A stretch of DNA of 64,000 bases from Acidimicrobiia bacterium. Its GTDB lineage: Bacteria > Actinomycetota > Acidimicrobiia > Spongiisociales > ZC4RG35. The DNA is taken from contig CBDBCY010000004.1 in the NCBI GenBank assembly GCA_965203555.1, positions 512,001-576,000 on the forward strand. Reading direction: 5' to 3'. This document shows positions 2 to 24,023 of the stretch, piece by piece; the first letter of the stretch is position 1, and every line of letters starts with the position of its first letter. The notes beneath the pieces are model-generated. The model was given only the letters and a program-made list of their open reading frames with translations. It made no database searches and had not been told where the DNA came from. The position numbers and the translations under genes are program-made.

Positions 2-817
2 GAGACAGCTTCAGACAACGGCACGCAGGTGATTTGCACCTCACACTCGGAAGTGATACTGAACGAGGCCGCCCAACAGGACGCCCTGGTCGCCTTTGTG
101 GGACACCCTCATCGGGTCGAAAAAAAGGCTCAAGTGCTCAAAGCGCTAAAGGAAATCAGGTTCGAAGATTATTACAAAGCAGAGATCACCGGTTTCGTGC
201 TGTATGTAGAAGGTTCAACCGATGTGGATTTGTTGCTCGCCTTTGCCACGGTGCTGCAGCATGAGGCTCGCCACGTCTTGGAGCGCCCCTTCGTTCATTA
301 CGTCGGCGACAACCTGGCCTACGCCCGCTCCCACTTCTACGGTCTGCGGGAGGCGAAAACCGATCTGGTGGGATATGCAATCTTCGATCGCCTCGACCGA
401 GGGCGACTCAGATCAGAAGGCGAGTTGGTGGAACATATGTGGAACCGCCGCGAGATAGAGAATTACCTCCTGCCTGCGGAAACGCTACGTCGATACGCGG
501 AGCAGAAAGGACGTGCATCCGTCAAGCCCTCCGATTCCAAACGCATCGGCACAACCCTTTTCGAAGGGCCGGAAGCCCAGCGATGGTTGGATGCCATGGA
601 CCGCGCCATCGAAGACTTTGCTCCGCCCGTCGCCTTACGTGATCCGGACAACGAATTCTGGATCGAAACCAAGATGAGTGACCGGTTCCTGACGCCGGCG
701 CTCAGGACTTTCTTCACCGATATGAGTCTTCCCGTCCTCCTGCGAAAGAAAAACTACTACAAACTGGCCACTATCTTGAGCCCTCCGAGTCCACCGGGAC
801 GTGGCGGATGTGCTTGA
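2..817 (+). CDS. AAA/ABC ATPase-TOPRIM (OLD-like ATP-dependent nuclease), C-terminal part; 5' end outside the window
   Basis: Frame is open from position 2. ICTSHS is an ABC-ATPase H-loop; LYVEGSTD, AIFDRLD and REIENYLL are TOPRIM/OLD-type motifs. The C-terminus looks frameshifted and the true end is probably 866. Confidence 0.7.
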   Translation, partial: ETASDNGTQVICTSHSEVILNEAAQQDALVAFVGHPHRVEKKAQVLKALKEIRFEDYYKAEITGFVLYVEGSTDVDLLLAFATVLQHEARHVLERPFVHYVGDNLAYARSHFYGLREAKTDLVGYAIFDRLDRGRLRSEGELVEHMWNRREIENYLLPAETLRRYAEQKGRASVKPSDSKRIGTTLFEGPEAQRWLDAMDRAIEDFAPPVALRDPDNEFWIETKMSDRFLTPALRTFFTDMSLPVLLRKKNYYKLATILSPPSPPGRGGCA

Positions 818-2824: not shown

Positions 2825-5113
2825 TCACTTGATCACCACCAAGCTGAACCCGGAGGTATATACCAGGATGTCCAAGTCATCGATTCCGTTGACCTGCTCG
2901 TCCCACTTTTGCTCAAACGTCTCGAGGCTGACGACCTCGCCGTTCGCTTGGAACATGTGGTCGGCGTCATAGCTCCACAGGGTGAAGAAGGTGCGATACC
3001 TCTGCTGGCCGGCGTACAACTCGACCTCCTCGACATTCAGGCCCGGAGCCGTCGAGAAATTCCGGCCTTGTAGTACATCGAACTCTGTCTCGTCCCGTGC
3101 GGTGTGAACGATCCAGACAATCGAACGAGAGTCCACATACCTGACTTCGTTCGCGTCCAGTACGGCGTCACCATCTCTGTCGCTGAAGACCTCCACGTCG
3201 ACACTGACAAGGAACTCGTAGCCAACTCGATATTCGGACGGGATTGGAATCTCGATGTCGGCCCTTACACCTCTGCGGTTGATTCTGATGCTGGGCGTCC
3301 CTGCCGTGAGGGGAGCTTCCCCGATCATGTAGGCGCCGTCGCCATCGGAGGGGGCATGGTACAGCTGGTAACGGATTTTCGCTTCCAGTTCGGTATTGGG
3401 TCTTCCCGTGTAGCGGGAGTCCGTCCCGCGCAGCGTCCCCCCGTACTGGTCTACCAGGTCGTATCCGACGGTGAACTCAATCTTGTCACCGTCCCGCTGC
3501 TGGAAAGAATTGAAATCAGGCCGGGCGTACACCAGGACCGACTCGCCATCGCTCCAGGCGATCCGATGGACCTGTTCGGTGCAACAATCTGCTTCGATGG
3601 TTACCGTGTCCAGACGCTCTTCACGCCTCGGACCCCTCAAAGAAAAAGTGGCGCTGCCGCCCGCGTCGGTGAGCACCGTTTCGTCCTGCCTTGCGTTGCG
3701 TCCTCTGCTGACCAAGTCGGGATCGGGCCGGCCGGCGCTCACATCCTCGGATTCCACCCTGACTGCCCGGCTCTCAACTTCGATATACACCGGCACTCCC
3801 TCTCTCTCCAGGCGGGCGCCGTCCTCGTCGAGGAGTTGGATGCTGAACTCCACCGATGACCGCCGGTCCAGATCGACTATGAAGGCCCCGTCGCCGCCTA
3901 TGCGAGCGGAGTCGGCGGGCACATCGTGCCGCACCGTGAGACTGTCCGGCGCCTTTTCCGACCTTGCCCGGGCCGTGGAGAAATCCGCCGTGTCCCGATC
4001 AAATCTCTGTCCATCCCTCTCACCAACCCAGGCGTAGATGTTCATGGTCGCCCCCGGGGTTGCGTCAAAATCCTCGAAGAGATTCCCATCCGGATCGGTT
4101 ACCTCATCTTCGTCCCGGTCCCAGATGCAGTCACCGTCGCCCAGTATCTGGTCCTCGTCGCAGGTACCGTCGCTTTCCAGGCCACCACGGGGATCGTCCG
4201 TGTAGAACCAGTCCACGGCCCTGCCCTCGGCGGGAGCGAAATTGTCATCCCGAACGGAAACCATCATCAAGACCTCGAAGTCGTCGGTACCCTCGTTCGG
4301 AGTGACCTGCACCATCAACCCTCTGGGACGCAGGTTGGAATGGTCCAGGATGGCCGCCATGAATTCAGCCATGGTGGCTCTCGACATGTCTACGTCAGGA
4401 CCGTAAGTCAGACTGGTCAGTCCACTTGCCACCCCGAGTTCGTACAACTGGGTGACTGCATCGTGAACGTTGTGGGGCGCCTCCTCCAGGTCTGTGAAGG
4501 GAGAGCCCACCTCGAAGTCTCCGTCGTTGTCATTGACATCATCCGGTGTGTAACCAAAGGCTATTCGGCCGTCGGCGGCGGGGACCATCAGGTCCATGAG
4601 TCTTTGCAGGAAAAGAGCCATCTCGCCGCGGCTGACGTTACGGGCGGGCGTGTAGGTGGTGGCGCTGGTGCCCACGGTAATCCCCATCCGGTAAATCTGG
4701 CCGATGGCCTCTTGGGACTCTCGGGACAAGTCTGCGGTATCCCGGAAGGGCGTTTCAGTTGCCGGGGGAACGCGAATACCCACCAGCCTGGCCAGACGGA
4801 CCAGGAAAAGCGCCATGTGCCAGCGGGTCACCGGCCTGTCCGGCGAGTATGAAGTAGGAGAGGCGCCGTTGGTGATTCCATAGTAGGCGATGCAATCGAC
4901 GTCGCCGGCATTGGGATGGAGGACCGGGACATCGACGAAACCCGCGCTCGGAATGATCTCCTCTGGACAGGCCTCAAAAGATGGAAGATAATCGGGCGCC
5001 GGGCCACCCGCATTGGCTGAAATCGGGCTGATCGCCGAAATGCCGACCAAGAGCGACAGAGCCGCCGCCAACCCCACTGAACGGCGCCGGTGGAAGGAGA
5101 AGAGCGTTGCCAT
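2825..5113 (-). CDS. Secreted S-layer homology (SLH) domain protein
   Basis: Signal peptide from MATLFSF (ATG 5113); three SLH-like repeats (VTRWHMALFL, VSRGEMALFL, MSRATMAEFM); acidic beta-rich C-terminus. Confidence 0.8.
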   Translation of the reverse strand: MATLFSFHRRRSVGLAAALSLLVGISAISPISANAGGPAPDYLPSFEACPEEIIPSAGFVDVPVLHPNAGDVDCIAYYGITNGASPTSYSPDRPVTRWHMALFLVRLARLVGIRVPPATETPFRDTADLSRESQEAIGQIYRMGITVGTSATTYTPARNVSRGEMALFLQRLMDLMVPAADGRIAFGYTPDDVNDNDGDFEVGSPFTDLEEAPHNVHDAVTQLYELGVASGLTSLTYGPDVDMSRATMAEFMAAILDHSNLRPRGLMVQVTPNEGTDDFEVLMMVSVRDDNFAPAEGRAVDWFYTDDPRGGLESDGTCDEDQILGDGDCIWDRDEDEVTDPDGNLFEDFDATPGATMNIYAWVGERDGQRFDRDTADFSTARARSEKAPDSLTVRHDVPADSARIGGDGAFIVDLDRRSSVEFSIQLLDEDGARLEREGVPVYIEVESRAVRVESEDVSAGRPDPDLVSRGRNARQDETVLTDAGGSATFSLRGPRREERLDTVTIEADCCTEQVHRIAWSDGESVLVYARPDFNSFQQRDGDKIEFTVGYDLVDQYGGTLRGTDSRYTGRPNTELEAKIRYQLYHAPSDGDGAYMIGEAPLTAGTPSIRINRRGVRADIEIPIPSEYRVGYEFLVSVDVEVFSDRDGDAVLDANEVRYVDSRSIVWIVHTARDETEFDVLQGRNFSTAPGLNVEEVELYAGQQRYRTFFTLWSYDADHMFQANGEVVSLETFEQKWDEQVNGIDDLDILVYTSGFSLVVIK

Positions 5114-5555
5114 AAACTCTTTATAGCATCGCCAAGACCTGTCGACCGGGCCTCGGCCAATCTTTAAATGTTCAGGTTGACCACATCCCTTTGCGCAGAT
5201 TTTTCCGGTTGTGGCCGAGACTCCGGCCATCGTCTCGGAGGAATAACCCCGCTTGATTAACTCCTTCTCCGCCAGTTTGGCCGGCCTGATCACGAACAGT
5301 GGCGTGTGGTCGCCGATCACAAAAGCGTCAGGTGAGTAGGTGGTGACCGAAGTCCCCTTGGGTAATTCCGTATTGGGCGATGCTGTTGATGTCCAAGGCG
5401 TTGGCGGTTACGACCGGGCACTTTAAGCCCAGCCACCCCTACCCCTCTTGAGAGTGCTGTGTTAGGATAGCTCCGGTAAGGTATTGGATGGGTTGCCCCA
5501 ATGGGGTCGCCCGATCTATCGCTGTACCACCCAGACCCAGAAAAGGAAGGGAAAG

Positions 5556-15130: not shown

Positions 15131-17002
15131 CTACTCTCCCCCCGTCTCCTCCGGGGCCTCTCCGGAGGTCTCCTCCGGTGGGTTGTCCAGCAACGACTTC
15201 ACCCACTCCATAAGTTCCTGGAGGGGCAGGCTGGGGAACTGGGCCTGGATGTCCAGAGGAACACCGTCTTCCCCGACGTCGATCCCGCCCGGAGTCGTCC
15301 ACCGGATGGTGGTCAGCCTGAAGACGCCCTCATTGAATAGATGGAGCAAACTCTGCCCGGTGTTCTTCTTGAAAGTGGTCTCACCGATCACCACCGCTCC
15401 TCGGGTTTCCTGCAGCAGCCCGGCCAGCACCTCAGCGGCCGAGGCGGATTGCCCGTTCACCAGCACCGCTATCCGGGGGGCGTCGGCTGCCAACAGAGAC
15501 TCGCCAATGCCGTCGATGTCATAGGTCCTGTCCCGAGTGTGGAAGGTCATAACCGGCACCTCACCCACCAGAGACCCGGCTATTTTCTGCAGTACGTCCA
15601 CCCGTCCCCCGGGGTTGTTGCGAAAGTCGAGAACCAGCAGTTCGGTATCCACCACTTCGGCCAGCCGCCCCGCGAACTCCTCGGGGGCGCCACCCGGGGA
15701 CGCGCTGAAGCTGGTCAATTGGATGTAGGCGATGGACTGGGTGTCGTGCGACTCCGCACTGGTGTACGGAACCTCTATTTCCTTGCGAACCAGGGTGAGT
15801 GTGTACTCCTCCCCGTCCCTTTCGAAGGTGATGTCCACCGAGGTGTCGAGTTCGCCCCGGATCAGACCGGCCGCCTCCCGAAGAGTCAGACCGGAAAGAC
15901 GGTTGCCGTCCACGGCAACAATGAAATCCCACGGCAGCAAACCGGCGTTGTAGGCGGGACCGCCCTCGAAGACGTCAAGGATGAAGATCCGGCAGGTCTC
16001 CGAAAGCGGGGAACAGAACGGCTTCCACTGGTCGTCCACCGTGACCACCCGAACTCCGATACCCACGTAGCGGCCCGCCTCATCGATTGCCCTCCACTCT
16101 TCGGGATCGTGGTAGGCGCTGTTACGATCCAACGCCTTGACCATCTCCCGCACCGCGGTTTCCGCAACACTCTTGAGGGGAGTCTCGACCGCGCCCGACG
16201 CCCAGGCGCACACCGGCTCGAAGACCGGATCGGGGATGGAACAGTCAAACCGAGGACGTTTCGCAGCCGATTCCTCCGCCTCCTCCATCGCCAAGGCGGC
16301 CGCCTCGTTCACCGGCGCCGCCAACTCCTCGAGAGTGACTCCCAGCAGGTACCTGGTGTCGATGTACTCGTACACCTCGCACAGCAGCAGCCACTCGTCC
16401 GGATCCTCACAATTGGCGACCGCATAGGGAACCGCCAACGCCCTCTCTATCAGTGTGGCCGCCTCCCGAAGGTTTATGGGGTCCTCGCCACAGAACCGCA
16501 ACGGATCCTCGGCACACCCCCTGGTGATCCCGTCCGCATACAAGCCGCTAACCGCATCCGCGTAGAACGCGTCTTCCGGGATGTCGGTAAAGGACGCCGG
16601 ATCGGCCGGGTGCCGGTCATCGAAGAACGCCCGATCCAGCCAAACGGCGAACTCGCCGCGGGTGATCACCTCGTCCGGACGGAAGGTCCCATCCGGGTCT
16701 GCATTCACCACCCCCTCCAGGGCCAGGGCTTCGATGGTCCCTGCGCTCCGGCTGTTCTCCCCCACATCCGAGAACAGGCCCTGCCAAGGCTCTTCCGCAA
16801 GACTCAGGGCCTCGGCCAGCAGGACCGCCGCTTCCCGGTTGGTCAGTGCCCGGCTCCCGTCAAGGGAGATGGGGACGGGGTGCGGGGCATCGTCGGATGT
16901 GGACGGCGCCTCCTGAGCGAGGACCGGGCCTGTAAATATCAAGCCCACCGCGATAACGGACGCCAAGACCCGCTTGGCAAAGGGAACAGTAAAGGAAATC
17001 AT
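15131..17002 (-). CDS. SLH-domain S41 (CtpA-like) carboxyl-terminal protease with PDZ domain
   Basis: Signal peptide; SLH repeats (ITRGEFAVWL); PDZ (GIGV...GPAYNAGL); DFRNNPGG; catalytic SASAAE. Confidence 0.85.
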   Translation of the reverse strand: MISFTVPFAKRVLASVIAVGLIFTGPVLAQEAPSTSDDAPHPVPISLDGSRALTNREAAVLLAEALSLAEEPWQGLFSDVGENSRSAGTIEALALEGVVNADPDGTFRPDEVITRGEFAVWLDRAFFDDRHPADPASFTDIPEDAFYADAVSGLYADGITRGCAEDPLRFCGEDPINLREAATLIERALAVPYAVANCEDPDEWLLLCEVYEYIDTRYLLGVTLEELAAPVNEAAALAMEEAEESAAKRPRFDCSIPDPVFEPVCAWASGAVETPLKSVAETAVREMVKALDRNSAYHDPEEWRAIDEAGRYVGIGVRVVTVDDQWKPFCSPLSETCRIFILDVFEGGPAYNAGLLPWDFIVAVDGNRLSGLTLREAAGLIRGELDTSVDITFERDGEEYTLTLVRKEIEVPYTSAESHDTQSIAYIQLTSFSASPGGAPEEFAGRLAEVVDTELLVLDFRNNPGGRVDVLQKIAGSLVGEVPVMTFHTRDRTYDIDGIGESLLAADAPRIAVLVNGQSASAAEVLAGLLQETRGAVVIGETTFKKNTGQSLLHLFNEGVFRLTTIRWTTPGGIDVGEDGVPLDIQAQFPSLPLQELMEWVKSLLDNPPEETSGEAPEETGGE

Positions 17003-17049: not shown

Positions 17050-17167
17050 GTCCGGCGGTGACCTACTCTCCCGGGGTTTTGCAACCCAAGTACCATCGGC
17101 GCTGTCGGGTTTCACTTCCGTGTTCGGAATGGGAACGGGTGGTTCCCCAACGCTATCGCCACCGGAC
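17050..17167 (-). rRNA. rrf: 5S rRNA
   Basis: Reverse complement contains CCCAUUCCGAACAC and GAGAGUAGGUCACCGCCGG; ends approximate. Confidence 0.95.
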
Positions 17168-17426
17168 AACCAAACTCACAACAAGCAAATCATCTGGGAT
17201 TCCCTGTCCAAGCCCTCGGCCTATTAGTACCGGTCAGCTGAACGCATTGCTGCGCTTACACCTCCGGCCTATCAACCTGGTGTTCTGCCAGGGGCCTTAC
17301 CGGGTAATACCCGTGGGAGACCTCATCTTGGGGTGGGCTTCGCACTTAGATGCCTTCAGCGCTTATCCCGTCCGTACGTAGCTAACCAGCCGTGCTCTTG
17401 GCAGAACAACTGGCACACCAGAGGTA

Positions 17427-17458
<32 letters not shown>

Positions 17459-17482
17459 CTCCCCTCAAGTCTCCTGCGCCTG

Positions 17483-17517
<35 letters not shown>

Positions 17518-17536
17518 AAACCCAGCTCGCGTGCCG

Positions 17537-17615
<79 letters not shown>

Positions 17616-17804
17616 ACGCCGTCGATATGGACTCTTGGGCGTGATTAGCCTGTTATCCCCGGAGTACCTTTTAGCCGATGAGCCATGGCGCACCCACGTG
17701 CCACCATGGGATCACTAAGCCCGACTTTCGTCCCTGTTTGACTTGTAGGTCTCACAGTCAAGCTCCCTTGTGCCTTTACACTCGTCGTCTGATTGCCGAC
17801 CAGA

Positions 17805-17845
<41 letters not shown>

Positions 17846-18127
17846 CACCGCCCCAGTGAAACTGACCGCCAGACACTGTCCCCGATCCGGATTACGGACC
17901 CGGGTTAGAAGCCCGTCGTACAAAGGGTGGTATTCCAAGGTTGACTCCACAGAGGCTTGCGCCTCTGCTTCCTCGTCTCCCACCTATCCTGCACATTACA
18001 CGCCAGACTCCAATGCCAAGCTACAGTAAAGGTTCCGGGGTCTTACCGTCCTGCCGCAGGTAGTGAGCATCTTTACTCACATTGCAATTTCGCCGAGTCC
18101 CTGGTTGAGACAGTGCCCAAATCGTTG

Positions 18128-18171
<44 letters not shown>

Positions 18172-18798
18172 CGGATGATCCCACCTGTTTCCAAGCGGGC
18201 CGGACTTTACCTTGATTGACCTCGATTCATCTGACCGGCGATCTGGCGTATCCGATCAACGCCTTCTTCGGTCAGATGCTCCCCCGCTTCCATCATCAGC
18301 AGGATGCGTCGGAACTTCTCGAACGCAATCCGCTTTCTGGTCTTCAGCGGGTGCTTGACAAAGAACGGAACGATATACCGGAGCAAATGCTCGATGCTGC
18401 GCACACGGTAGGCCATCCGGTCGCCGTGGTTCTTGCGTACCACGCCGCACCCGAAATGGCTCTTCATTGCATGCAGTACCTGTACATCGCGTTCGTGCTG
18501 CACAACGGTGAACTCAGGTAGAACCTGAAAGCCGGTCTTCATGCTGGGATGAGGGTTTATCCCGACGTGAAAGCAACCTTCACCGTCCACGAATCCTGTT
18601 ATCCATTGACTGTCAAGCTTCATCGATCAATCCTGAACGTCAAGTCTCTGAGGGTTTCCATTGCAGATTGGACCTTCCCTGCGGATTGTCCCCATGTCTG
18701 CCGGATTTTTACTGCCCGCCTGTGAGGACGGACGAGTACCGGACAGCTGTACGAGGAGTTTCCCGCATATGGTTCAGTTTTACTAAGGCTGCGATTCA
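18172..18798 (-). ncRNA. Group I self-splicing intron at 23S position L1931 (627 nt)
   Basis: Interrupts CCUAAGGU|AGCGAAAUU; ends in omega-G; P1 with U.G wobble; P, Q, R and S elements and P3, P4, P7, P8, P9 pairings are all visible. Confidence 0.95.
18207..18623 (-). CDS. Intron-encoded single-motif LAGLIDADG homing endonuclease
   Basis: WITGFVDGEGCF motif, conserved Gln (FTVVQHERD) and HPLKTRK; 138 aa; lies in loop L8. Confidence 0.93.
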   Translation of the reverse strand: MKLDSQWITGFVDGEGCFHVGINPHPSMKTGFQVLPEFTVVQHERDVQVLHAMKSHFGCGVVRKNHGDRMAYRVRSIEHLLRYIVPFFVKHPLKTRKRIAFEKFRRILLMMEAGEHLTEEGVDRIRQIAGQMNRGQSR

Positions 18799-18842
<44 letters not shown>

Positions 18843-19721
18843 AATTCAGAGCTTCGCCCGAGGGCTAACACCTCCTCTTAACCTTCCGGCACCGGGCAGG
18901 CGTCACAGCGTATACGTCGTCTTACGACTTAGCACGCTGCTGTGCTTTTAGTAAGCAGTCGTTTGGGCCTGGTCACTGCGGCCCCCTCAAGCTTCGGAGG
19001 AAAACTCCTACACTTTACCGGGGCGCTCCTTCTCCCGAGGTTACGGAGCCAATTTGCCGAATTCCTTAACCAGGGTTAACTCGCTCGCCTTGGTATTCTC
19101 TACCTGTCCACCTGTGTCGGTTTGGGGTACGGGCGCCCTGTGAACTCACTAGAGGTTTTTCTCGGTGGCATGGGCGTTCAGCGGCTTCTCCTAGAGGCGG
19201 ATCGGCGTCACGCCTCGGGCTTTTTTCGTGGCCCGGATTTACCTGGGCCACACCCTACACGTTTACCCCGGGAACAACCAACGCCCGGGTCCGCTTACCC
19301 TTCCACGTCGCCCCATTGTTGACCTCCTCCGGTCTGGGTCGACCACATCCGAAGATGCGGTCTTAGCAAGACCGGCCTTGGTCGGGCGCGCACAGAGCGG
19401 TACGGGAATATCAACCCGTTGTCCATCGACTACGCCTTGCGGCCTCGCCTTAGGTCCCGACTAACCCTGGGCGGACGAACCTTCCCCAGGAACCCTTGGA
19501 CATTCGGCGGAAGAGATTCTCACTCTCCATTCGCTACTCATACCGGCATTCTCACTCGTGCCGTCTCCACGTCTCCTCACGGCGACGCTTCTCTGTCGAC
19601 ACGACGCTCCCCTACCGATCCCGCCCAACGGACGGAATCTCGCAGCTTCGGTGCTGAGCTTTAGCCCCGTTACATTTTCCGCGCAGCGCCACTCGACCAG
19701 TGAGCTATTACGCATTCTTTA

Positions 19722-19756
<35 letters not shown>

Positions 19757-20328
19757 TTGTGCAACTCCACATCGTTTCCCACTTAGCTCAGACTTAGGGA
19801 CCTTAGCTGGCGATCTGGGCTGTTTCCCTCGCGTCCACGAAGCTCATCCCACGTAGACTGACTGCCACGCTCTCACGCAATGAGATTCGGAGTTTGACTG
19901 AAGTTGGTAGGCTTGTGGGCCCCCTAGTTCAATCAGTGCTCTACCCCCATTGCGAAACGCGTAACGCTAGCCCTAAAGCTATTTCGGGGAGAACCAGCTA
20001 TCACCGGGCTTGATTGGCCTTTCACCCCTATCCACAGGTCATCCCCCAAGTTTTCAACCTTGGTGGGTTCGGGCCTCCACGAAGTCTTACCTTCGCTTCA
20101 CCCTGCCCATGGATAGCTCGCCCGGATTCGGGTCTAGGGCATGCGACTGGGTCGCCCTGTTCAGACTCGCTTTCGCTTCGGCTCCGGTACAACTACCTTA
20201 ACCTTGCCACATACCGCTAACTCGCCGGCTCATTCTTCAAAAGGCAGGCGGTCAGAGTTCCGTAGAACTCCTCCCACTGCTTGTAGGTCAACGGTTTCAG
20301 GTACTATTTCACTCCCCTCACCGGGGTG

Positions 20329-20370
<42 letters not shown>

Positions 20371-21054
20371 CAGGAAGTAATTAGCCTTACGAGGTGGTTC
20401 TCGCAGATTCACACGGAATATCCTCCGTGATACTTGGGAACACCGCTCAGAGAGCGACAACCTTCGCCTACGGGGCTGTTACCGTCTGCGGCCCGGCTTT
20501 CCATCCGGGTTCGGCTGATCGCCGCCTTTGTAACTCTGTGACGGCGCCGACGCACCGTCCAGCGGGTCCCACTACCCCCCCGCAGCAACGCCGTCGGGCT
20601 TTCATACACTGCAGAGGTTTGGGCTGATCCCGTTTCGCTCGCCGCTACTCAGGGATTCGCTATTGCTTTCTCTTCCTCGGAGTACTTAGATGTTTCAGTT
20701 CCACCGGTTCCCTCTACCGGTCCTATGTGTTCAGACCGGAGTGACTGGGCATGACCCCAGCCGGGTTTCCCCATTCGGACATCCCCGGGTCGAAGCTTGC
20801 TTGACAGCTCGCCGGGGCTTATCGCAGCCTGCCACGTCCTTCGTCGGCTCCTGGCGCCAAGGCATCCACCGATGACCCTTGGTAGCTTGGACAGAGAATC
20901 CAAGACAATTTGCTTGTTATGAAACTTTCAAGGTGCCAGTGGAGGTCACCCGTGCCAACGTGGGCGGCGGGCTCCCTCACAGCTGAATAGTGCGCCCGAG
21001 CCGCTTGCGCGGCCCGAGTAACCGGTGACCAAGTGAGAGCATTGTTTGCTCCTT

Positions 21055-22571
<1,517 letters not shown>

Positions 22572-22832: not shown

Positions 22833-24023
22833 TCAATTTCGGAGAAAAACCGACCTTCGCTTGCCCACCGTGAGAACTTTTTTTACCAACAATTCCCGCC
22901 CGACCTCATAGCCCCGAAGTGGCTTGCCGTCAATCCTGACCGCCCCCGCGTCTATCAGACGCCTGCCCTGGCTGGCTGAGGGCGCCAGCTGTGCCGACCT
23001 GAGCAATCCCGGCAGATATACCGGATCGTCGGCGGGAAGAGTGTGAGGGGGAGCGTCCCGGGGGACTTTCCGGTACTTGAACCGGCGGTCGAAATCCGCT
23101 TCGGCGGCGTTCGCCTCCCCCTCTCCCCAGTAGAGGGAGACGATTTGTTTCCCCAACAGCCTTTTGGCGGTGGCCGGATGCAGGCGTCCGTCATCGATCT
23201 GTTCGAGGATCCCGTTCACTTGCTCAACCGGTCGATCGGCCGCCAGCCGGAACCACTCTCCTAGAAGGTGATCGGGGATGGACATGGTCTTGCCGAACAT
23301 CTCGGACGCCGGTTCCGTCACTCCTATGTAATTGCCCAGCGACTGTGACATTTTTTGGCGGCCGTCGATGCCGGTGAGAAGCGGCATGGTGAGAGCAACC
23401 TGTGGCTTCTGTCCGTAGCGGGTCTGGATGATCCGACCCATCATCAGGTTCCACAACTGGTCCGTACCGCCCAACTCCACGTCCGCTTCAACCGCCACCG
23501 AGTCGTAACCCTGCAGCAGCGGATACAGAAACTCCAGAATCGAGATGGGAGTTTGCTCCGAGAAGCGATCGGCGAAGTCGGAACGCTCCAGCATCTGCGC
23601 CACCGTCACCGTCGAGGCGAGTTCCAGAATCTCGGTCATGTCCAAGGACTCCAGCCACTCCGAGTTCCAACGGATCTCCAGGGGTTCGGGGAGCAGCACC
23701 GAGCGGAATTGGTCCAGCAGCGGTTCGGCGTACGAACGGACCTCATCGGCGGTGAGGCGGCGGCGGGTCTGGCTCTTTCCGCTCGGGTCACCCACCCGGG
23801 CCGTGAAGTCCCCCACGATCAGCACGGCGGTGTGACCCAACTCCTGGAAGTGGCGGAGTTTTCGCAGCACCACCGCCCATCCCAGGGTGACCATGGGTGC
23901 GGTGGGGTCGAGGCCCAGCTTGATGCGAAGAGGGCGGCCGCTGTCCAGCAATTCTTCAAGACCTCCCGGCGGCAAGACCGTGTCGGCGCCTCGGAAGGCC
24001 AGGTTGAGATCTCTCGAAGTCAT
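22833..24023 (-). CDS. tyrS: Tyrosine--tRNA ligase
   Basis: KLGLDPTAP, YPLLQGYDS, GGTDQ, KMSQS and C-terminal S4 domain. Confidence 0.95.
   Translation of the reverse strand: MTSRDLNLAFRGADTVLPPGGLEELLDSGRPLRIKLGLDPTAPMVTLGWAVVLRKLRHFQELGHTAVLIVGDFTARVGDPSGKSQTRRRLTADEVRSYAEPLLDQFRSVLLPEPLEIRWNSEWLESLDMTEILELASTVTVAQMLERSDFADRFSEQTPISILEFLYPLLQGYDSVAVEADVELGGTDQLWNLMMGRIIQTRYGQKPQVALTMPLLTGIDGRQKMSQSLGNYIGVTEPASEMFGKTMSIPDHLLGEWFRLAADRPVEQVNGILEQIDDGRLHPATAKRLLGKQIVSLYWGEGEANAAEADFDRRFKYRKVPRDAPPHTLPADDPVYLPGLLRSAQLAPSASQGRRLIDAGAVRIDGKPLRGYEVGRELLVKKVLTVGKRRSVFLRN

Follow-up and report, generated by a model that had tools for sequence, protein, structure and literature searches.

A group I intron with a single-motif LAGLIDADG gene at site L1931 of an Acidimicrobiia 23S rRNA gene and its probable movement between species

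The window analysed here is a stretch of 64,000 nucleotides (nt) from an Acidimicrobiia bacterium. Its ribosomal RNA (rRNA) operon contains a 23S rRNA gene that is interrupted by a group I intron, and the intron in turn carries the gene for a homing endonuclease of the LAGLIDADG type. The element is real and probably active. We consider it very likely that it is a mobile, self-splicing intron of the L1931 lineage residing in the single 23S gene of its host, and that this lineage has spread over bacterial phyla and moved between species within the host genus.

The interrupted 23S rRNA gene and its intron

The rRNA operon lies on the minus strand. An Rfam search locates the 16S gene at 21057-22571, the 5S gene at 17050-17166 and the 23S gene as given in Table 1. 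The 23S gene is 3689 nt long with the intron and 3062 nt without it, and the 23S genes of intron-less congeners measure 3059-3063 nt. The host assembly (G000; the other G codes denote comparison genomes) comprises 3.42 Mb in 4 contigs and is 95% complete. A genome-wide search finds a single 23S gene and a single intron copy.

Read on the minus strand, the 5′ exon ends in ...CGGUCCUAAGGU at 18799 and the 3′ exon starts with AGCGAAAUUCC at 18171. The intron between them extends from 18798 to 18172, and its last base is G. Over its first 44 nt, the downstream exon has 100% identity to the 23S sequence of E. coli. Base 1 of the 3′ exon corresponds to base 1932 of the annotated 2904-nt E. coli 23S gene (match from record position 458261, gene from 456330), and the insertion site is therefore L1931, after U1931. 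The intron is thus inserted between bases 1931 and 1932 in E. coli numbering, which is the position of the L1931 lineage. The site belongs to the H69-H71 region of 23S rRNA.

The Rfam model Intron_gpI (RF00028) matches the intron from end to end (model positions 1-253; 48.7 bits, E 3e-11, in a search of 18100-18870 alone) and scores the open reading frame (ORF) of about 400 nt as an insertion in the P8 loop. P1 is formed by the exon sequence CUAAGGU and the intron sequence GCCUUAG (intron positions 10-16), which meet in a U.G pair at the splice site. P2 is absent, and the segment UAAAA links P1 to P3. In intron numbering, P3 pairs positions 22-27 with 161-166, P4 pairs 32-37 with 114-119, P7 pairs 151-156 with 593-597 and P8 pairs 167-177 with 573-585. 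The conserved elements are P (18770-18759), Q (18687-18678), R (18652-18641) and S (18213-18202). P7 is presumed, by analogy, to be the guanosine-binding helix.

The folding was examined in an alignment (A1) of 80 rows, 79 of them distinct, which consists of the window, one congener (L004) and 78 loci from the protein search described below. A locus cut by a contig end (L021) and one with differing flanks (L055) are excluded. The rows come from Pseudomonadota, Chloroflexota, Acidobacteriota, Actinomycetota and at least eight further phyla. With the proposed P1-P10, 93.9% of 5895 cells form standard pairs; this share falls to 81.1% in shuffled alignments and to 26-48% if the pairing partners are displaced by 1-3 columns. 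Compensatory changes on both sides are seen in 44 of the 75 pairs, and none of 500 shuffles matches any of the five observed measures of pairing and covariation. It should be noted that the folding model comes from the window sequence itself and that the rows are related to one another; among these figures, it is the compensatory-pair counts that are robust.

Covariation supports the core of P3-P4-P6-P7-P8 with the P3/P7 pseudoknot. All seven P1 pairs are standard in all 79 distinct rows, and the U.G at the splice site is invariant. In P10 (UCGC/GCGA), the inner three positions are paired in 73-74 of 77-78 rows, and the fourth pair (U-A) is formed in only 41 of 78. Compensatory changes occur in 7/7 pairs of P5a, in 6/6 of P5b (7/7 including a closing pair counted as a separate helix), in 5/5 of the outer P8 helix, in 7/8 of P9 and in 2/2 of P9.0, where GC is replaced by AU in 8 and 19 rows. 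Hardly any variation is seen in P4, P5 and P7, and P4 and P7 are therefore uninformative on pairing either way. The absence of P2 and the extended P5, with all 13 pairs of P5a and P5b compensatory, match the IC1-like architecture of the L1931 lineage, a subgroup label that is taken from the description in part of Haugen et al. (PMC1995217). Five loci of the same lineage (L017, L022, L026 (Pseudohongiella), L081 and L045) have introns of 709-841 nt with extra sequence in P6 or P5; the P6 insert of L081 is about 200 nt long.

Table 1. Features of the interrupted 23S rRNA gene (window coordinates)
Feature	Position	Strand	Basis
23S rRNA gene	17204..20892	-	Rfam RF02541, 2728 bits, model positions 1-2925 (whole model)
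Last 7 nt of 5′ exon (CUAAGGU), exon strand of P1; 18799 is U1931	18799..18805	-	Sequence; E. coli numbering; alignment A1
Group I intron, 627 nt, IC1-like without P2	18172..18798	-	Rfam RF00028; covariation; same element at same site in 78/80 fetched loci
Internal guide region: P10 strand UCGC (18794-18791) and P1 strand GCCUUAG (18789-18783)	18783..18794	-	Sequence; alignment A1
P3 5′ strand (CUGAAC), pairs with 18633-18638 (GUUCAG)	18772..18777	-	5/6 pairs compensatory, 100% of cells paired (A1)
P4 (18767-18762 with 18685-18680), enclosing P5, P5a, P5b and an A-rich bulge (18757-18689)	18680..18767	-	Alignment A1
P6 (GGG/CCC) and P6a	18652..18679	-	P6a 4/4 pairs compensatory, 99.7% of cells paired (A1)
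P7 5′ strand (GAGACU, bulged A) within element R; pairs with 18202-18206 in element S	18643..18648	-	5 pairs, 99.5% of cells paired, nearly invariant
P3 3′ strand (18638-18633) and P8 5′ strand (18632-18622), including AGGA 7 nt before AUG	18622..18638	-	Alignment A1
Homing endonuclease gene, 138 amino acids, single LAGLIDADG motif	18207..18623	-	ORF list; Pfam PF00961; PDB 5gkk_A; dN/dS
P8 3′ strand	18214..18226	-	Alignment A1
P9.0 (GG/CC) enclosing P9, an 8-bp hairpin with GAAA loop	18173..18201	-	Alignment A1
Terminal G (omega-G), intron position 627	18172..18172	-	Invariant in 80/80 aligned introns (column G637)
First bases of 3′ exon (AGCGA); GCGA pairs with intron UCGC to form P10	18167..18171	-	Sequence; alignment A1

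The endonuclease gene sits in the P8 loop. Its stop codon UAA (18209-18207) lies within element S, and the last 7 codons therefore double as the P8 3′ strand and J8/7. The protein of 138 amino acids (aa) matches the Pfam family LAGLIDADG_1 (PF00961) at 84.1 bits against a cut-off of 23.1, in a single stretch that covers residues 8-107 and profile positions 1-101 of 102. It has one motif, ITGFVDGEG (residues 8-16), in which E15 aligns with the E and the D of the two motifs of I-SmaMI. The closest structure is PDB 5gkk_A, a "putative homing endonuclease" of 170 aa, which aligns over nearly the whole length (residues 2-136; E 1e-53; about 60% identity, 81 of 135 positions by hand count); the literature search returned no paper on 5gkk. 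The protein further aligns with both halves of the two-motif enzymes I-SmaMI, I-OnuI and I-PanMI (I-SmaMI halves at E of about 1e-22). I-SmaMI and I-OnuI are two-motif monomers of fungal mitochondria with other targets, whereas the window protein has a single motif and would, by analogy, act as a homodimer that cuts the intron-less target.

The ORF of 138 aa is intact in all seven Actinomycetota copies, i.e., the five copies of the genus and two others. The ratio of nonsynonymous to synonymous divergence (dN/dS) of the endonuclease is 0.036-0.20 in 20 of 21 pairs; the remaining value, 0.63, belongs to the closest pair (G000-G003), which has 15 differences only. By these ratios, the gene is under purifying selection. 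A preliminary description of this DNA had reported a complete group I intron with a single-motif LAGLIDADG gene at site L1931 of an actinobacterial 23S gene. This structural reading is confirmed, and the alignment to the annotated E. coli gene bears out the site. The host is indeed actinobacterial, its congeners being Acidimicrobiia. The intron coordinates, the P, Q, R and S elements, P1, P3, P10 and the P9 loop proved to be as described when the minus strand was re-read.

Occurrence in the host genus and across bacteria

An assembled 23S gene is available for 12 of the 17 species genomes of the genus, and the intron is present in five of these 12: G000, G003, G006, G007 and G015 (contig C29). 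Across these five, the intron measures 625-628 nt. The other seven (G004, G005, G013, G012, G002, G009 and the partial G016) have an empty site, in which CGGTCCTAAGGT is directly followed by AGCGAAATTCC. A 23S tree was built from the exons only, with 11 rows of the genus and two outgroups; the partial G016 (75% aligned) and two further 23S genes of G015 (C96 and C135) were excluded, and G025 and G028 were left out as outgroups. In this tree, the empty G013 is sister to the carrier G015 (support 98/97), and the empty G009 groups with the carriers G006 and G007 (support 97/99). The distribution of carriers requires at least three gains or losses. A tree that places all carriers in one clade is worse by 141 log-likelihood units and is rejected by the approximately unbiased (AU) test (p 2e-58).

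The G015 bin holds three different 23S genes. The gene on C29 contains the intron, and its exons are 98.3% identical to those of the window. The genes on C96 (L093, 2953 nt) and C135 (L098, 2945 nt) have no intron. The bin is probably mixed, and these two genes are probably foreign to it.

The age of the intron copies was judged from the synonymous divergence (dS) of the endonuclease and of two comparator genes. One comparator is the gene for tyrosyl-tRNA synthetase (TyrRS; window 22833-24023, minus strand), which adjoins the operon directly upstream, and the other is GlnA, about 26 kb away. For G000-G003, dS is 0.05 for the endonuclease, 0.75 for TyrRS and 1.15 for GlnA. The corresponding values are 0.16, 0.85 and 0.97 for G000-G006, 0.39, 1.06 and 1.03 for G000-G015, and 0.76, 1.09 and 1.07 for G000-G007. 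In the closest pair, the endonuclease dS is thus 14-22 times below that of TyrRS or GlnA. The whole intron is 97% (G003), 95% (G006) and 90% (G007) identical to that of G000; the spacer between 16S and 23S in the same operon is 82%, 80% and 87% identical, respectively.

By these measures, the intron copies of G000, G003 and G006 appear considerably younger than both the host genomes and the surrounding operon. This is most simply explained by homing into empty sites after exchange of DNA between species, and the values point to recent transfer of the intron between species of the genus. The G007 copy and the G003-G015 pair (endonuclease dS 0.37; housekeeping genes 0.53-0.69) are compatible with vertical descent, and the empty site of G013 may represent a loss.

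Outside the genus, a search with the endonuclease protein finds relatives in 165 species genomes, from which the best 80 loci were fetched. Among these 80, 76 have an insertion of 623-841 nt between identical exon words and two more differ by one exon mismatch; the other two are the loci excluded from A1. Endonucleases with 66-81% identity occur at the same site in 73 further loci of many phyla. The best 80 loci include 26 from Pseudomonadota, 16 from Chloroflexota (with the cultured Bellilinea caldifistulae GOMI-1), 10 from Acidobacteriota and 5 from Actinomycetota, as well as members of Gemmatimonadota, Myxococcota, Planctomycetota, Deinococcota, Chlamydiota, Nitrospirota, Patescibacteria and others. 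In the protein database, 4582 clusters match at E <=1e-3; identity is 77-97% throughout the best 120, almost all of which have 138 aa. These data indicate that one intron lineage with a conserved 138-aa endonuclease has spread, as far as sequences tell, over many bacterial phyla. The locus with differing flanks, L055, encodes a 72%-identical endonuclease at 1433-1914. It has a different exon word upstream (CGGTTATAAGGT) and, allowing 2 mismatches, none downstream; L055 may be a divergent 23S gene or another context.

Relatives are common in the class and phylum of the host. At E 1e-10, a protein survey detects them in 47 of the 301 Acidimicrobiia genomes sampled, spread over 36 of 136 genera, and in 50 of the 401 Actinomycetota genomes sampled, spread over 44 of 249 genera; the latter count includes one unpublished genome, G449. 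These counts are lower bounds because many bins lack rRNA genes. In all nine genomes checked, i.e., family genomes and five further ones, the matches lie inside 23S genes. The 23S genes of the five further genomes are 3.6-5.7 kb long, and one of them has three such ORFs. The rarity in this clade that the preliminary description had implied is therefore not borne out. A literature search, with subscription journals and the supplementary tables of PMC11270868 and PMC1995217 outside its scope, returned no paper that joins group I introns, 23S rRNA and Acidimicrobiia or Actinobacteria.

Other genera of the host's family carry divergent insertions in the same region of the gene. G035 (L105 3594-4300, 707 nt) and G024 (L108, 705 nt) have insertions at L1931 with LAGLIDADG proteins that are 36-43% identical to that of the window. 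G025 (L106) has 566 nt at L1931 and 737 nt near positions 1911-1917, and G028 (L107) has 733 nt near position 1923. Rfam gives weak group I matches of 23-32 bits for these four loci and for the G035 insertion alone, and the insertions are called introns by their position and LAGLIDADG ORF only. In L106, a second weak group I match (315-480, minus strand; 29.2 bits, E 6.5e-4) lies downstream of and outside the 23S gene. A search at the DNA level had found the intron in none of 44 genomes outside the genus. Reading this as absence was dropped, as G035, G024 and G025 carry divergent L1931 insertions that the DNA search missed; the result therefore reflects a limit of sensitivity and is no evidence of absence. 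Long 23S genes with one to three LAGLIDADG ORFs inside were seen in G129 (C2:681269-686966, 5698 nt), G226 (C12:5186-9605, L118, 4420 nt) and G368 (C18:57011-61133, 4123 nt). They are multi-intron rRNA genes outside the Candidate Phyla Radiation (CPR).

Proposed splicing and homing, and competing explanations

In the proposed mechanism, the sequence features are observed and the chemistry is taken from established group I biology. The rrn operon would be transcribed, and the intron would fold into P1-P10. Free guanosine at P7 would attack the phosphate after U1931, which is held in the U.G wobble by the guide GCCUUAG. The terminal G would next occupy the guanosine site, and the freed 3′ OH of U1931 would attack the 3′ splice site, kept aligned by P10. 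The exons would be joined to give a normal H69-H71 region of 23S rRNA, with the predicted junction ...CCUAAGGU/AGCGAAAUU. The 23S introns of Thermotoga are reportedly self-splicing, according to the title of a paper by Nesbo and Doolittle from 2003. The 138-aa protein, as a homodimer of single-motif subunits, would cut intron-less 23S rDNA at L1931, and repair from an intron-bearing copy would copy the intron into the site (homing). The protein may also aid the folding of its own intron, as reported for Thermotoga neapolitana.

Across phyla, the ribozyme core is kept together with the splice-site U.G, P10 and the terminal G, with compensatory changes, as would be expected only if splicing is under selection. 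Two further claims of the preliminary description, that the element is active and that it was acquired horizontally, are supported indirectly. The former agrees with the covariation of the core, the purifying selection on the endonuclease and its position in the sole 23S copy of the genome. The latter agrees with the patchy occurrence in the genus, the rejection of a single carrier clade, the low endonuclease dS and an intron that is more conserved than the spacer.

RNA data were sought in public sequencing runs. Part of the stretch occurs in twenty runs from 10 studies, and most of these runs carry a sponge, coral or marine metagenome label. Logan contigs of three metatranscriptome runs (X15, X16 and X17) and of the DNA-like run X1 were compared with the 23S gene. 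One contig of X16 and 20 of X17 lack precisely the 627 nt of the intron, joining 18171 to 18799; X15 and X1 have no such contig. X17 also contains many neighbouring variants of the joint, which point to other organisms. No contig in the four runs spans a splice site with at least 31 letters on each side. In X15, the word depth of the intron contig is 12.4 versus 350-444 for zero-mismatch exon contigs, and in X1 the values are 4.4 and 5.8; this contrast is a weak hint, as exon contigs pool relatives and ranking by depth is unsafe. Taken together, the RNA contigs are compatible with splicing without proving it. Contigs of X16, X17 and X1 also skip a 104-nt stretch of the 23S gene (window 19557-19660). 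The skipped part, probably a variable expansion segment missing from related organisms, could serve as an organism-specific RNA tag.

Several results weigh against a mobile, self-splicing element. Splicing and DNA cleavage are both predicted activities. The Rfam score of the intron is 1.3 bits under the curated gathering score of 50, and the inner extension of P8 over the start codon has just 64.9% of cells paired in A1. In the contigs that skip the intron, the shorter side consists of 23-30 letters of the universally conserved junction, and these contigs may therefore derive from intron-less organisms. Intron contigs are present at low depth in all three RNA runs, and thus unspliced or excised RNA or contaminating DNA is present. 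The endonuclease tree intermixes phyla (24 label changes versus a minimum of 11, with phyla clustering only partly), but it is a quick tree with weak support, in which L040 and L064 are represented by incorrect frames and many rows begin at an upstream start, and is used for phylum mixing only. The housekeeping dS values near 1 are also near saturation, and they come from no more than two comparator genes. Finally, endonuclease divergence from G000 increases in the order G003, G006, G015 and G007, which equals the order for TyrRS.

The last point bears on the alternative that survives best, although we regard it as unlikely. The ribozyme would splice, but the endonuclease would no longer home and would be kept as a maturase or be decaying, while the intron is inherited vertically with occasional precise loss. 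Given the equal order of endonuclease and TyrRS divergence, part of the pattern may indeed be vertical descent with two precise losses (G013 and G009), and the G003-G015 values fit descent as well. A maturase-like role has been reported for the L1931 protein of Thermotoga neapolitana in the relevant part of a 2014 review (PMC3984707). However, the ratio of endonuclease to housekeeping dS ranges from about 0.05 to 0.7 among pairs that are about equal in GlnA (dS 0.97-1.15), a spread that a single slower clock does not account for. Identity between genomes is also much higher for the intron than for the spacer in its operon. Moreover, the catalytic acidic residue is retained, and near-identical 138-aa proteins across phyla imply repeated invasion, both of which argue against loss of homing.

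A second alternative, which we consider highly improbable, is that the intron is not removed and stays in the mature 23S rRNA, or is excised without ligation, as described for Simkania negevensis. The L1931 intron of Simkania is reportedly unspliced, a precedent known from the title of Everett et al. 1999 only, and it counts against splicing together with the intron-bearing contigs in the three metatranscriptome runs. However, the core, the splice-site U.G, P10 and the terminal G would hardly be conserved with compensatory changes across phyla in an intron that is not spliced. The 23S copy is also the sole one of the genome, the site lies in the H69-H71 region, and the low depth of the intron relative to the exons in X15 is a weak hint in the same direction.

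The last alternative, a foreign intron-bearing 23S fragment joined into the genome by assembly or binning, can practically be set aside: rRNA operons are often mis-assembled in metagenome bins and the congener bin G015 does hold three different 23S genes, but the window belongs to a 4-contig, 3.4-Mb assembly, the same intron occupies the same site in the single-contig congeners G003 and G007 and in G006, the exons are 97.8-98.3% identical to those of congeners, the gene without the intron has the length of intron-less congener genes, and TyrRS lies upstream of the operon in G000 and, by coordinates, near the 23S gene in G003, G006, G007 and G013.

Two large ORFs near the operon (window 15131-17002 and 2825-5320, both on the minus strand) encode proteins with S-layer homology domains, and one of them adds PDZ and S41 peptidase domains.

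Relation to known L1931 introns and significance

The element is of a known kind, as its site, architecture and gene family match documented L1931 introns. The parts of Haugen et al. (2007, PMC1995217) on which we draw record the combination of an L1931 intron and a single-motif LAGLIDADG gene for Simkania, Thermotoga, Synechococcus, green algal plastids and Acanthamoeba mitochondria. The introns of T. neapolitana, T. naphthophila and T. petrophila are 698-700 nt long and encode proteins of 162 aa (PMC1995217). They share the site, the group I type and the single-motif gene with the window intron, which is shorter at 627 nt and 138 aa. Thermotoga hosts are hyperthermophiles, whereas the window host is a mesophilic marine or sponge-associated member of the Acidimicrobiia. 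Furthermore, the Thermotoga intron is judged in that source to be strictly vertical within its clade; in contrast, the evidence from the window favours interspecies transfer.

The L1931 intron of Simkania negevensis (654 nt, 143-aa protein; same parts of PMC1995217) has the same site, nearly the same size and a single-motif LAGLIDADG gene. A Chlamydiae metagenome-assembled genome (MAG; L040) has a 72%-identical endonuclease at L1931. The introns of Synechococcus C1 and C9 (675 and 666 nt) are described in the same source as having an IC1-like structure in which P5 is complex and P2 is missing, and their ORFs extend from a peripheral loop into the core. They have in common with the window intron the lack of P2, a P5-P5a-P5b region with an A-rich bulge, and an ORF that ends inside J8/7 and element S. 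Their proteins are larger (162-167 aa), however, and up to three introns occur per 23S gene, compared with one in the window gene. According to Haugen et al. (PMC1995217), overlap of ORF and core of the same kind is found in cyanobacterial L1917, L1931 and L2593 introns.

Introns in 23S genes of CPR bacteria carry LAGLIDADG_1 genes at positions 1917, 1931, 1952, 2593, 2604 and 2657 (Tsurumaki et al. 2024, PMC11270868, in the sections used here). At L1931, the endonuclease of a Patescibacteria MAG (L015) is 77% identical to that of the window. The same sections of this survey treat the abundance of such introns as a CPR trait; the window host is non-CPR, and genes of this family occur in 12-16% of the sampled Actinomycetota genomes. 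The 2014 review, in the part cited above (PMC3984707), states that the transfer of introns from one bacterial species to another has little evidence behind it.

Elements of this kind also have practical consequences. Interrupted rRNA genes defeat rRNA predictors, disrupt primer and probe sites and upset MAG quality checks in which an rRNA of normal length is assumed. The compact 138-aa endonuclease, with its universally conserved 23S target, is a candidate scaffold for meganucleases.

For the biology of these introns, the genus offers a clean natural case of transfer, in which the intron appears far younger than the host genomes (dS 0.05-0.16 versus 0.75-1.15). The host range is also affected, as such introns are frequent in Actinomycetota genome data. 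We lean, though by no great measure, towards a general picture in which the L1931 lineage is moving now between species and, in the longer term, between phyla, and in which endonuclease-bearing 23S introns are a regular component of about 1 genome in 8 in uncultured Actinomycetota, with two or three such ORFs in some genes of 4-5.7 kb. If this is true, the textbook rarity of bacterial rRNA introns outside CPR and their scant horizontal movement would be an artefact of sampling cultured strains.

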